Virus record (IMG/VR): IMGVR_UViG_2526164690_000036
Direction: 5' to 3' (one strand)
Source: a virus
Taxonomy: Duplodnaviria > Heunggongvirae > Uroviricota > Caudoviricetes
DNA: 8,031 nucleotides
The notes under the pieces were generated by a model, which had not been told where the DNA came from, did no database searches, and saw only the letters and a program-made list of their open reading frames with translations. Shown piece by piece: positions 423-1,251 of this stretch; position 1 is the stretch's first letter, and every line of letters starts with the position of its first letter. A program made the translations under genes and the position numbers.

Positions 423-943
423 TGCTTAAGATATGCTATGTCACTGATAAAAAATTTGTTGTGTGTGTTTAGTTATTTTATCTACCTCCATTATGATTTA
501 AGACTGATATATGTTATCAGCAAAGGTACATCGTTATTATTTTACCTGTCAATACATTTGATATTGATTATCGTTTACATCGCTTGCTTAGGAAATTGAA
601 GGCAGGTAACTATCATGTCAATGAACTAACCCACAGTCTAACGTACTTCTTTCCCCAATCACCAACAACCAAATTCCTGTTATCACCACTGGGATTTTGG
701 CGCAACTTCATGGTGCAGAGGTAAATAGCATCAAGCAAAATCTCTTTTTCCGTTGTTGTCCTTATGGGACGTCTGTCTTTCTGACCGATTTCATATTGGC
801 GAGGTAATGGGAAGTTAAGTAGAATAGCTGCGGGTGCTTGAGGCTATCTGCCTCGGGCATGAACACCAACGGCAGATAGAGAAAAGCCCCAGTTAACATT
901 ACGCGTCCTGCAAGACGCTTAACATTAATCTGAGGCTCAATCT

Positions 944-1156
944 ATGAACGGCAAATCTAGGTTAGCCTCTTACGTGCCGAAAGGCAAGGAGAAGCAGGCT
1001 ATGAAGCAGCAAAAGGCGATGTTAATCGCCCTGATCGTCATCTGTTTAACCGTCATAGTGACGGCACTGGTAACGAGGAAAGACCTCTGCGAGGTACGAA
1101 TCCGAACCGGCCAGACGGAGGTCGCTGTCTTCACAGCTTACGAACCTGAGGAGTAA
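944..1156 (+). CDS. mok-like N-terminally extended reading frame overlapping hok (same frame in this locus)
   Basis: 70-aa ORF from ATG 944 whose C-terminal 51 aa are the Hok peptide. Chromosomal hok loci are annotated with a mok frame that controls hok translation. Whether it is translated here is not determinable from sequence. Confidence 0.45.
   Translation: MNGKSRLASYVPKGKEKQAMKQQKAMLIALIVICLTVIVTALVTRKDLCEVRIRTGQTEVAVFTAYEPEE
1001..1156 (+). CDS. hokD: Hok-family type I toxin (HokD/RelF-like small membrane peptide)
   Basis: 51-aa product MKQQKAMLIALIVICLTVIVTALVTRKDLCEVRIRTGQTEVAVFTAYEPEE has a single TM helix and the conserved Hok C-terminal motif (CEV.IR.G..EVA.F.AYE). It matches my recollection of E. 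coli HokD. Confidence 0.85.
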   Translation: MKQQKAMLIALIVICLTVIVTALVTRKDLCEVRIRTGQTEVAVFTAYEPEE

Positions 1157-1226
1157 GAGACCAGGCGGGGGAGAAATCCCTCGCCACCTCTGATGAATCA
1201 GGCATCCTCAACGCACCCGCACTTAA

Positions 1227-1251
1227 CCCGCTTCGGCGGGTTTTGTTTTTT
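1227..1251 (+). terminator. Rho-independent terminator downstream of hok
   Basis: Stem CCCGC (1227-1231), loop TTCG, stem GCGGG (1236-1240), followed by the T-rich run TTTTGTTTTTT. Confidence 0.6.

Follow-up and report, generated by a model that had tools for sequence, protein, structure and literature searches.

A probable complete hok/mok/sok type I toxin-antitoxin cassette of the hokD/hokW subgroup in a lambdoid prophage

Introduction

The hok/sok (parB) locus of plasmid R1 is the reference system for hok loci, and its regulatory elements and the tac/fbi/ucb/dcb model that connects them have been defined (PMC9841398). A prophage-borne relative, hokW-sokW from the Stx2 prophage Sp5 (VT2-Sakai) of E. 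coli O157:H7 Sakai, is an experimentally active type I toxin-antitoxin system, for which both the toxicity of Hok and its neutralisation by Sok have been shown (Takada et al. 2021, PMC8621323). The HokW and R1 Hok proteins share ~44% amino acid identity (PMC8621323), a value that we take as the toxin-level distance to R1. The HokD coding sequence is also toxic when expressed (bioRxiv 10.1101/2025.08.07.668861). In E. coli K-12, hokA, hokC and hokE are considered in the literature to be inactivated by adjacent insertion elements, and the mRNAs of other hok loci have been reported to be poorly translated in vitro.

Here, we analyzed a hok locus in a stretch of viral DNA of 8,031 nucleotides (the window; Caudoviricetes, IMG/VR record IMGVR_UViG_2526164690_000036). 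A first-pass annotation had asked whether this copy retains a promoter and a sok antisense gene, which was the correct question to ask. We conclude that positions 796-1251 very probably hold a type I toxin-antitoxin cassette of the hok/mok/sok kind, complete and canonical in form and belonging to the hokD/hokW subgroup. The cassette lies within a lambdoid prophage, in the early region, with a remnant of a phage antirepressor (ant) gene on one side and the DUF968-rusA-Q genes on the other. The locus is an ordinary copy of one already known, a textbook RNA-controlled module of a lambda-like prophage from Shiga-toxin-type E. coli.

Results

The transcription unit of the toxin comprises the following features. 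Counts of loci refer to 40 aligned loci from Escherichia, Kluyvera, Photorhabdus, Pantoea and one R1-type plasmid.

796-825, plus strand: predicted hok promoter, -35 TTGGCG at 796-801, 18-nt spacer, -10 TAGAAT at 820-825 (9 of 12 matches in a promoter scan)
832-1251, plus strand: predicted full-length hok mRNA of ~420 nt, its 5' end placed by homology to R1 and hokW, its 3' end being the terminator
932-935, plus strand: Shine-Dalgarno sequence of mok (SDmok), GAGG, kept in 39 of 40 loci, with ucb or dcb as partner
944-1156, plus strand: mok reading frame, 70 codons, in the hok frame with a common stop codon and its own Shine-Dalgarno sequence upstream
986-991, plus strand: Shine-Dalgarno sequence of hok, AAGGAG (AAGGAGA in 37 of 40 loci), where the homology to K-12 hokD starts
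1001-1156, plus strand: hok toxin gene, 51 amino acids, protein identical to HokD WP_000813254.1
1164-1185, plus strand: conserved G+C-rich hairpin of the 3' UTR, GGCGGGGGA...UCCCUCGCC, helices 16 and 17 being paired at 95-96% across the 40 loci
1225-1251, plus strand: intrinsic terminator of the hok mRNA, 7-bp stem (1225-1242), 4-nt loop and a T run to 1251

The first-pass description of a HokD-type locus with intact hok and mok reading frames and a clean terminator is borne out by these features. The Hok protein matched Pfam PF01848 HOK_GEF with 82.9 bits (cut-off 22), and identical hok DNA is labelled hokD in RefSeq genomes. Scores against the NCBIfam models for Hok, which represent narrow subfamilies, fell under their cut-offs; however, Pfam and the RefSeq naming settle the family. 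Codon 47 encodes Tyr and not Cys, as in HokD-type toxins (TAC at 1139-1141). The -10 box of hok aligns with TATAAT, TAGAAT or TATATT in other hok loci (alignment A3) and lies 7 nt ahead of the alignment position of the R1 hok mRNA 5' end. The mok ATG occupies the same alignment column in 37 of 40 loci and the layout is that of the annotated mokW/hokW pair, and translation of hok is probably coupled to that of mok. The terminator is common to K-12 hokD and phage Evi, and homology to other hok loci stops there. An Rfam match to isrK at 1165-1246 (27 bits versus 50) was rejected, as it was far below the gathering score and reflects the two 3' hairpins only, and further weak Rfam matches also fell far short of theirs.

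The leader was matched in full by Rfam RF01794 (832-1006, model positions 1-157, 107.1 bits versus a gathering score of 59). Despite its name, this family matches the hok sense strand, starting at tac and ending at the hok AUG. The elements of the proposed folding switch are as follows.

832-843, plus strand: tac (translational activator element), GGGUGCUUGAGG, at the 5' end of the mRNA, whose partner is fbi in the full-length fold and ucb after trimming
844-879, plus strand: top hairpin of the tac stem, 9-bp stem 844-852/871-879 (CTATCTGCC / GGCAGATAG) with an 18-nt loop, predicted in both conformations
884-890, plus strand: ucb (upstream complementary box, anti-SD), AAGCCCC, pairing with SDmok when closed and with tac when open, from the Rfam consensus structure
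964-969, plus strand: dcb (downstream complementary box), AGCCUC, pairing with SDmok in the trimmed mRNA to form the Sok-target hairpin 932-969, from the Rfam consensus structure
1206-1218, plus strand: fbi (fold-back inhibition element), CCUCAACGCACCC, 12 bp with tac and one bulged C

The 9-bp inverted repeat was reported exactly in the first-pass annotation, which placed it in the hok mRNA leader, and there it forms the upper part of the conserved tac stem. Folded alone, the hairpin reached -15.5 kcal/mol (z = -5.2 versus shuffles). Its stem (helix 2) was paired in 94.7% of cells in the 40 homologous loci, with four of the nine pairs changed on both sides, and R1 carries CUUUCUGCC/GGCAGAAAG at this place. 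Thus, given both the folding score and the pairing and two-sided changes across loci, the repeat is more than a chance occurrence.

Folding of the whole hok transcript, which had been proposed as a check, predicted a two-state switch. The full-length mRNA has a predicted minimum free energy of -172.9 kcal/mol (z = -7.7), with tac closed on fbi and ucb on SDmok, while trimming to 832-1204 in silico switched the predicted minimum to the tac/ucb and SDmok/dcb pairs. Among the 40 loci the full-length structure was paired in 83% of cells, compared with 38-44% in slid controls, and the trimmed form in 73%, compared with 37-41%, although these controls are somewhat inflated, as the alignment was seeded from the window's own sequence and the loci are related. 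Across these loci, 50 pairs were changed on both sides, a number reached in 0 of 500 shuffles. The tac/fbi helix (helix 1) was paired at 88.7% and shows a U-A to C-G exchange (23 versus 12 loci), and in the window 829-837 is complementary to 1213-1221 at 9 of 9 positions. The seven tac/ucb pairs, formed in 37-39 of the 39 loci with letters there, are essentially invariant and give no covariation evidence, and the SDmok/dcb pairs are likewise essentially invariant in alignment A3. The predicted folding of the window's hok mRNA thus reproduces the classical switch, and homologous loci support its pairs by covariation, with the exception of tac/ucb and SDmok/dcb.

The candidate antisense gene overlaps the mok start on the opposite strand.

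882-952, minus strand: candidate Sok antisense RNA gene of ~71 nt, read 952 to 882, coordinates carried over from the sokW feature of VT2-Sakai AP000422
959-987, minus strand: putative Sok promoter, -35 TTGCCT (987 to 982), 17-nt spacer, -10 TAACCT (964 to 959)

The predicted RNA has a single-stranded 5' tail complementary to the mok start region, followed by a long hairpin and then UUUUCUCU, and this tail and terminator-like hairpin fold with -33 kcal/mol (z = -5.5). We placed the promoter by homology to R1 and sokW together with conservation in the family, in which the spacer measures 17 nt in 40 of 40 loci and the -35 box reads TTGCCT or TTGACC. In 24 of 40 loci the -10 box reads TAACCT or TAATCT; elsewhere the hexamer diverges or is cut short in the alignment. 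A generic promoter scan of the minus strand did not call the Sok promoter at ~960-990, because only 3 of the 6 positions in its -10 box agree with the consensus. The promoter-less sokW mutant of the Sp5 study (primers YO-421/422) alters exactly TAGGTTA, the equivalent of 958-964 in the window (PMC8621323). The sequence has the features expected of a cis-encoded Sok that overlaps the start of mok: a predicted promoter of its own, a 5' tail and a terminator hairpin. A minus-strand Rfam 'sok' match at 760-890 (15.7 bits, E = 0.68) was far under the gathering score and was discarded.

Alignment with characterized loci, as the first-pass annotation had suggested, located sok, its promoter, tac, ucb and fbi. 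The same annotation would have read a locus with neither a hok promoter nor an antisense promoter or Sok-like RNA as a silent relic, whereas the window holds a predicted hok promoter at 796-825 and a putative Sok gene and promoter on the minus strand within 882-987.

We then considered the region upstream of hok.

1-422, plus strand: right-hand 422 bp of an IS10 copy (IS10 A), with the 3' part of the transposase gene (stop codon at 409) and, at 400-422, the inside end (...GGGGATCTCTCAG)
423-431, no strand: presumed IS10 target-site copy, TGCTTAAGA, the first 9 bp past IS10 A, a partial match to NGCTNAGCN
645-741, plus strand: remnant of the 5' end of the phage ant gene, truncated and without a usable start codon
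757-781, plus strand: weak terminator-like hairpin (6-bp stem, three G-C pairs) with a T-rich tail, immediately before the hok promoter

The first 422 bases match an IS10 copy of Tn10 on R100 with 100% identity, and the inside end falls at 422. The junction of IS10 A with position 423 was found in 0 of 5,426 complete E. coli genomes searched, and the closest of these, O111:H11 88.0502, carries the second copy, IS10 B, and lacks IS10 A. The target consensus of IS10 is NGCTNAGCN. In an uninterrupted relative the site reads ...cattaaagga/tgcttaagatatgc, the slash marking the position of IS10 A; the window covers only sequence to the right of the left part of IS10 A, and a second target-site copy would fall to the left of the window. 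IS10 A ends 374 bp upstream of the hok -35 box and 579 bp upstream of the hok start codon, beyond the transcription unit. Genomes without IS10 at this place have loci that match the 829 bp right of IS10 A with 100% identity. As part of the cassette reading, and with the same high confidence, we regard IS10 A as an independent, strain-specific insertion outside the cassette that is expected to have no effect on hok/sok. Read-through from IS10, or a larger rearrangement, is conceivable since the left part of IS10 A lies beyond the window. The insertion more probably affects a divergent alpha/beta-hydrolase gene than hok; in relatives without IS10, the left part of 423-795 is the spacer before this gene.

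The first-pass annotation had described the upstream region as AT-rich, non-coding and free of relBE. No relBE-like ORF is found upstream of hok in the window, but 645-741 is a gene remnant, matching residues 10-40 of CP-1639 Ant at 23 of 31 positions (BLASTP, 74% amino acid identity, E = 2e-14), and RefSeq labels the equivalent stretch as a partial pseudogene. The hairpin at 757-781, conserved in close relatives only, may shield hok from upstream transcription. We also noted that 707-737 is complementary to 835-863 (24 of 29 positions with a 2-nt gap), with a score of 26 versus 18.5 +/- 2.1 in shuffles (~3.6 sd, reached in 0 of 300). We rejected it as a second, inverted fragment of the hok leader: it lies inside the ant coding remnant, is absent from the CP-1639 ant gene and falls outside the segment common with phage Evi, which begins near 754, and the similarity is probably due to chance.

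Finally, 447 complete E. coli records carry the 829 bp at 423-1251 with at least 99% identity and annotate the gene as hokD. The full arrangement of the window occurs in 455 of the 5,426 complete genomes and the relE-hokD junction in 1,165.

Discussion

From sequence and homology we propose how the locus would operate. The sigma-70 promoter at 796-825 would give a stable mRNA of ~420 nt, in which tac (832-843) at the 5' end and fbi (1206-1218) at the 3' end are clamped together and ucb (884-890) covers the mok ribosome-binding site. Because of this clamp and masking, the full-length mRNA would be neither translated nor bound by Sok. Slow 3' trimming would take off fbi and allow tac/ucb pairing, with the hairpin 844-879 atop the stem, and the mok SD region and dcb would then form the Sok-target hairpin. 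The short-lived Sok (~71 nt, 952 to 882, promoter 959-987) would pair with the mok start region and block mok, and hence coupled hok translation, marking the duplex for RNase III. Should the supply of Sok stop, Hok (51 amino acids) would be made and would damage the inner membrane. By analogy with Sp5 hokW-sokW, the trigger may be prophage loss or induction. For the window copy, each of these steps, from promoter activity and Sok transcription to 3' processing and killing, is deduced from sequence and homology.

A structurally complete hok/sok locus does not guarantee killing activity, because the mRNAs of other hok loci are reportedly poorly translated in vitro. The cassette could be transcribed and regulated and yet be quiescent, a neutral passenger of the prophage that rarely or never makes Hok at toxic levels. 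Native chromosomal hokA, hokB and hokC gave neither post-segregational killing nor rifampicin activation (as summarised in bioRxiv 10.1101/2025.08.07.668861), and A-to-I editing of hokD mRNA, whose toxin has Tyr at codon 47, was reported at only ~6% (PMC12214031). However, the HokD coding sequence proved toxic on expression in the former study, the near-identical hokW-sokW is activated by prophage induction and doubles phage release (PMC8621323), and the retention of every regulatory element, together with compensatory changes seen in different genera, points to selection on function. We judge a quiescent passenger to be unlikely. A silent relic, in which the promoter and/or sok has been lost or the nearby IS10 inactivates the locus in the manner of the IS-disrupted K-12 loci, we consider highly improbable. 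The IS10 end 579 bp upstream of the start codon, the K-12 precedents of hokA, hokC and hokE and the scan that called no minus-strand promoter near 960-990 would fit such a relic, but the hok promoter, tac, ucb, mok, dcb, Sok promoter, Sok hairpin, fbi and terminator can all be recognised, genomes without that IS10 share the identical sequence right of 422, and the element stops 374 bp short of the -35 box, in contrast to the insertion in K-12 hokC, which sits in the 3' UTR.

IS10 A might also alter the regulation of a working cassette, if read-through produced 5'-extended hok transcripts in which 707-737 pairs with tac and the top stem, changing the fold. The transposase ORF does run on the plus strand toward hok, ending at 409, and the 31-nt inverted similarity between 707-737 and 835-863 exceeded all 300 shuffles; however, the terminator-like hairpin 757-781 lies in between, and the complementary stretch belongs to the ant remnant, is missing from CP-1639 ant and from the Evi-shared segment, and probably arose by chance. 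Transcription of the IS10 transposase is very weak, which counts against read-through into hok, and the IS10 inside end is not known to carry an outward promoter. We give this proposal almost no weight. The two inverted IS10 copies, with inside ends facing inward (A ending at 422, B spanning 4504-5832), have the geometry of Tn10 and bracket 4,081 bp with hok/sok, the DUF968 gene, rusA, the Q antiterminator and a CPBP protease gene. If IS10 A were full length, a 6.7-kb unit could transpose as a composite carrying both an addiction module of its own and a phage late-gene antiterminator. IS10 B comes with a 9-bp duplication of its own, the stretch between the copies is colinear with the prophage and there is no sign of the 6.7-kb unit having moved; we regard a composite element as very unlikely.

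The complete cassette thus remains our preferred reading. Its presence has little importance beyond correct annotation, as the identical form occurs in hundreds of sequenced Shiga-toxin-type E. coli. The prophage copies do provide a view of the intact hokD locus, of which the K-12 relBE-hokD arrangement is a truncated, derived form.

Comparison with the described systems places the locus. K-12 hokC (gef) resembles the window's hok locus in being chromosomal and in having an insertion sequence close by. There, IS186 lies inside the 3' UTR, and the K-12-type hokC row of alignment A3 (L017) diverges in the 3' UTR hairpin and has lost fbi, whereas the window's IS10 is upstream of the transcription unit and every element is intact. 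The first-pass analogy to IS-inactivated hok loci (the K-12 hokA/hokC/hokE type) therefore fails: IS10 ends at 422, outside a unit whose -35 box starts at 796, and 796-1251 is identical to loci without an IS.

The hokD (relF) gene of the K-12 cryptic prophage Qin encodes a Hok protein identical to that of the window and has similar downstream neighbors (DUF968/YdfU and the Q antiterminator). However, it is near-identical to the window only over 986-1251, from the hok ribosome-binding site through the ORF and 3' UTR to the terminator. Upstream of 986, relB-relE replaces everything, so that the hok promoter, tac, ucb, the mok start and sok are all absent, while the window has the leader and sok and no relBE ORFs and is thus not of the K-12 type, in which hokD is the third gene of a relBEF operon. 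K-12 hokD is the rearranged copy, as which it is likewise treated elsewhere (PMC12214031), and the window shows the complete form; the missing relBE, which the first-pass annotation had pointed out, is therefore no anomaly.

All named elements of R1 hok/sok align with the window, including the 5' GGCGCUUGAGGC (tac), the CUUUCUGCC/GGCAGAAAG stem, AGCCCC (ucb), SDmok, AGCCUC (dcb), fbi and a Sok promoter of TTGCGC-17-TATCCT, and the predicted two-state folding is that of the R1 model (PMC9841398). R1 differs in being plasmid-borne, in its longer tac-stem loop and in having mok in the +1 frame relative to hok, whereas the window's mok is in the hok frame.

The experimentally studied near-twin of the window locus is hokW-sokW, which is 93.8% identical over 813-1228 and alike in architecture: it is prophage-borne and shares the in-frame mok, the length and position of Sok and the Sok -10 box. 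The leader at 832-1000 differs at nine positions only, eight of which cluster at 943-957, a stretch that spans the Sok 5' recognition tail and mok codons 1-5. The two loci differ in the toxin C-terminus (...VFTAYEPEE in the window and ...VFVDYESEK in HokW), in the region past fbi, where Sp5 hokW is without the terminator sequence of the window and K-12, and in their place in the phage genome.

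Organization of the hok/mok/sok locus

The locus at 423-1251, confirmed at the position given by the first-pass annotation, is a standard, complete and prophage-borne hok/mok/sok module. It had been annotated before, and a near-twin has been studied experimentally. Alignment with characterized hok/sok loci located tac, ucb, fbi, sok and the sok promoter. For the mRNA elements we used the definitions summarized in PMC9841398, together with alignments to the R1-type plasmid locus and to hokW of the Stx2 prophage Sp5 (VT2-Sakai). The hok and mok ORFs are intact and followed by a clean terminator, as the first-pass annotation had stated. 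The mok ORF shares the reading frame of hok, an arrangement also seen in VT2-Sakai, where mokW and hokW are annotated.

Elements of the hok mRNA (all plus strand; "definitions" are those of PMC9841398).
832-843, tac, translational activator (definitions, alignment)
844-879, top of the tac stem (same mapping)
884-890, ucb, upstream complementary box (definitions, alignment)
932-935, SDmok, mok Shine-Dalgarno (definitions, alignment)
944, mok start (70-codon ORF in frame with hok)
964-969, dcb, downstream complementary box (definitions, alignment)
986-991, SDhok (definitions, alignment)
1001-1156, hok, 51 aa (Pfam HOK_GEF, 82.9 bits)
1164-1185, 3' UTR hairpin (alignment)
1206-1218, fbi, fold-back inhibition (definitions, alignment)
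1225-1251, terminator (sequence scan)

Rfam family RF01794 matches the plus strand at 832-1006 (107 bits versus a gathering score of 59). Named 'sok', this family in fact spans the hok mRNA leader, starting with GGGUGCUUGAGG and stopping at the hok AUG. The sole plus-strand call of the promoter scan in 380-1400 is a sigma-70-type promoter, TTGGCG-18-TAGAAT, at 796-825. Its -10 box lines up with TATAAT, TAGAAT or TATATT of other hok loci and lies 7 nt 5' of the base aligned with the R1 hok mRNA 5' end. At codon 47 hok has TAC with a G after it, giving a UACG context (1139-1142); recoding of this Tyr to Cys through A-to-I mRNA editing has been reported in hokC, hokD and hokE, at ~6% for hokD (PMC12214031).

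Transfer of the VT2-Sakai sokW feature places the sok gene at 952->882, on the minus strand. The fold predicted for its RNA has a 9-nt tail at the 5' end, followed by a long hairpin and UUUUCUCU (-33 kcal/mol, z = -5.5). The putative sok promoter consists of TTGCCT (987->982), a 17-nt spacer and TAACCT (964->959). All 40 aligned loci have a 17-nt spacer, and the -35 hexamer is conserved; the -10 box reads TAACCT or TAATCT in 24/40 and is divergent or shortened by alignment gaps in the others. In the promoter-less sokW mutant of Takada et al. (primers YO-421/422), TAGGTTA was replaced (PMC8621323), and this motif is exactly window 958-964. The first-pass annotation had asked whether this copy retains a hok promoter and a minus-strand Sok or is a silent relic; at the sequence level, both are present.

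Predicted folding and covariation

Folding of the full-length RNA (832-1251) gave a minimum free energy (MFE) of -172.9 kcal/mol (z = -7.7), with a 12-bp tac/fbi helix containing one bulge and with ucb paired to the mok SD region. This predicted fold is the closed, inert form. On removal of the last 47 nt (832-1204) the predicted MFE structure switches: tac pairs with ucb, and the mok SD region and dcb form a hairpin at 932-969. An open form of this type has been described as translatable and Sok-binding (PMC9841398). Thus, the two predicted folds reproduce the two-state switch of R1 hok mRNA from this sequence alone. The perfect 9-bp inverted repeat with an 18-nt loop (844-852/871-879), which the first-pass annotation had placed in the hok mRNA leader, is exact and sits on top of tac/ucb in the open fold as the conserved top of the tac stem. 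Folded alone, it reaches -15.5 kcal/mol (z = -5.2).

We compared these structures across 40 distinct loci, comprising the window, Sp5, phage Evi, the R1-type plasmid locus and 36 others from Escherichia, Shigella, Kluyvera, Pseudocitrobacter, Citrobacter, Photorhabdus and Pantoea, retrieved with the Hok protein. Standard pairs fill 83.0% of cells for the full-length structure versus 38–44% with partners slid by 1–3 columns, and 73.3% for the open-form leader structure versus 37–41% in slid controls, contrasts that are inflated because the structure was taken from one alignment member and the loci are related. In the full-length structure 50 pairs change on both sides, a number reached by 0/500 shuffles. 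The tac/fbi helix is 88.7% paired, and one of its positions is U-A in 23 loci but C-G in 12. The 9-bp hairpin is 94.7% paired over the 40 loci and has four pairs in which both sides change. Because the pairs of tac/ucb and SDmok/dcb are nearly invariant, they give no covariation evidence either way.

Sequence between IS10 and hok

The region upstream of hok had been described as AT-rich and non-coding. The first description holds for 423-640; the second fails at 645-741, a phage antirepressor (ant) gene remnant that derives from the first ~40 codons (23/31 residues identical to CP-1639 Ant, E = 2e-14) and whose equivalent RefSeq marks as a partial pseudogene. The remnant lies directly 5' of the hok cassette, an arrangement which suggests that the cassette inserted into, or recombined beside, ant. 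The 31 nt at 707-737, which precede the hok promoter, show complementarity to the tac/top-stem region 835-863 (24/29 with a 2-nt gap). This score is reached by 0/300 shuffles, and the stretch is conserved in neither the CP-1639 ant gene nor phage Evi; the complementarity is probably chance.

IS10 copy A (1-422) has its inside end at exactly the position first annotated, and stops 374 bp before the hok -35 box. In relatives that lack it, sequence left of 423 runs into a minus-strand alpha/beta-hydrolase gene, with 26 bp separating its start codon from the insertion point (5941-6010 of one such relative, L002). Since this divergent gene adjoins the region in relatives, the AT-rich 423-640 is most probably its upstream region. 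A minus-strand promoter-like site is found at 517->490. The insertion probably separates the hydrolase gene from its promoter, and an effect of copy A on this gene, which is located beyond the window, is more likely than one on hok.

The suggested analogy with chromosomal hok loci inactivated by IS elements does not carry over: the IS of K-12 hokC sits within the 3' UTR and has removed fbi, and nothing comparable is seen in the window locus. IS10 has an outward promoter, pOUT, at its outside end, and its transposase transcription is weak. The pOUT end of copy A faces away from hok, and a terminator-like hairpin (757-781) stands between the element and the hok promoter; taken together, these features lead us to expect no IS10 effect on hok.

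Copy A was found at this site in none of 5,426 complete E. coli genomes searched. Its sequence matches one of the IS10 copies of Tn10 on plasmid R100 at 100% identity. Copy B (4504-5832) is complete, with its inside end at 4504, outside end at 5832, transposase on the minus strand, an RNA-OUT match (Rfam, 97 bits) at 5718-5787 and a perfect 9-bp target duplication, CGCATAGCT, in its flanks (4495-4503 and 5833-5841). Its neighbours are the CPBP gene on one side and a TrmB-like pseudogene on the other, and two O111:H11 genomes share this copy. The copies (1-422 versus 4504-4925) differ at 6 positions, all in 342-393 near the inside end. They are inverted with inside ends facing each other, which is the Tn10 geometry, and within 1-5832 they bracket 4,081 bp holding hok/sok, DUF968, rusA, Q and CPBP. 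The unit is a potential composite transposon, with no evidence of movement.

Prophage setting and spread of the locus

The window covers part of a lambdoid prophage from Shiga-toxin-type (STEC-lineage) E. coli. The O111:H11 strain 88.0502 chromosome matches 423-8031 over its full length (100.0% identity as reported) save two single-base gaps, and many O26, O145 and O103 genomes match once IS10 copy B is set aside. Gene order in the matching genomes is replication genes, DUF1627, DUF977, alpha/beta-hydrolase (minus strand), hokD, a hypothetical gene, DUF968, rusA, Q, CPBP protease, AraC-like regulator, three tRNAs, SASA esterase and lysis genes. The CPBP intramembrane protease gene (3550-4366) of the window carries two single-T deletions in T8 runs (~3692-3698 and ~4013-4019), scored against O111:H11 88.0502 and O26:H11 11368. 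Each shifts the frame. Either slippage has truly mutated the gene or the assembly has homopolymer errors.

RNA genes in the right part of the window.
7067-7316, three tRNA genes, Met(CAT), Arg(TCG) and Arg(TCT) by ARAGORN, the first being tRNA-Ile in RefSeq
7393-7583, STnc100, 3' of the tRNAs (strong Rfam match, 138 bits)

In Stx phages the interval from the tRNAs to the SASA esterase gene holds the stx genes; the window has none there.

The 30 best records share all 829 bases of the locus at 100% identity, and identity is at least 99% in 447 records, in which the hok ORF is annotated hokD. Homology to other hok-bearing phages has its left edge at ~754 (phage Evi) or 813-820 (Sp5, P1-like plasmids) and its right edge at ~1228-1251. 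Thus, the hok cassette behaves as a discrete module of ~450–500 bp.

Comparison with known hok loci

No relBE-like ORF lies upstream of hok, as first annotated, but this is the ancestral, complete state rather than a loss or an anomaly. K-12 hokD has only 986-1251 in common with the window, with relE and relB upstream of its hok ribosome-binding site, and therefore is without the hok promoter, tac, ucb, mok start and sok; in line with this, K-12 hokD is described as having shed canonical components by rearrangement (PMC12214031). The relE-hokD junction occurs in 1,165 of the 5,426 complete genomes and the full arrangement of the window in 455, and both coexist in some strains, e.g. E2865.

The HokD coding sequence is toxic when expressed (bioRxiv 10.1101/2025.08.07.668861). 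We consider it highly likely that the locus is structurally complete and regulated as in R1 and hokW, a judgement that leaves killing competence aside because chromosomal hok loci are often inert in killing assays (including bioRxiv 10.1101/2025.08.07.668861).

The hokW-sokW locus of Sp5 shares 93.8% identity with window 813-1228. The leaders (832-1000) differ at nine positions. One (909) is in the Sok hairpin loop, and the other eight cluster at 943-957, a segment that comprises the Sok 5' tail and mok codons 1–5 and is the most variable of the leader over the 40 loci. Sok keeps complementarity to its own mRNA automatically since it is cis-encoded, and the 943-957 cluster may be a specificity determinant limiting cross-talk among paralogous hok copies of one genome. 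The hokW-sokW locus was shown to work as a type I pair: after induction by mitomycin C its sokW RNA vanishes, HokW is made RecA-dependently, and phage release is ~twofold above that of the deletion mutant (PMC8621323).
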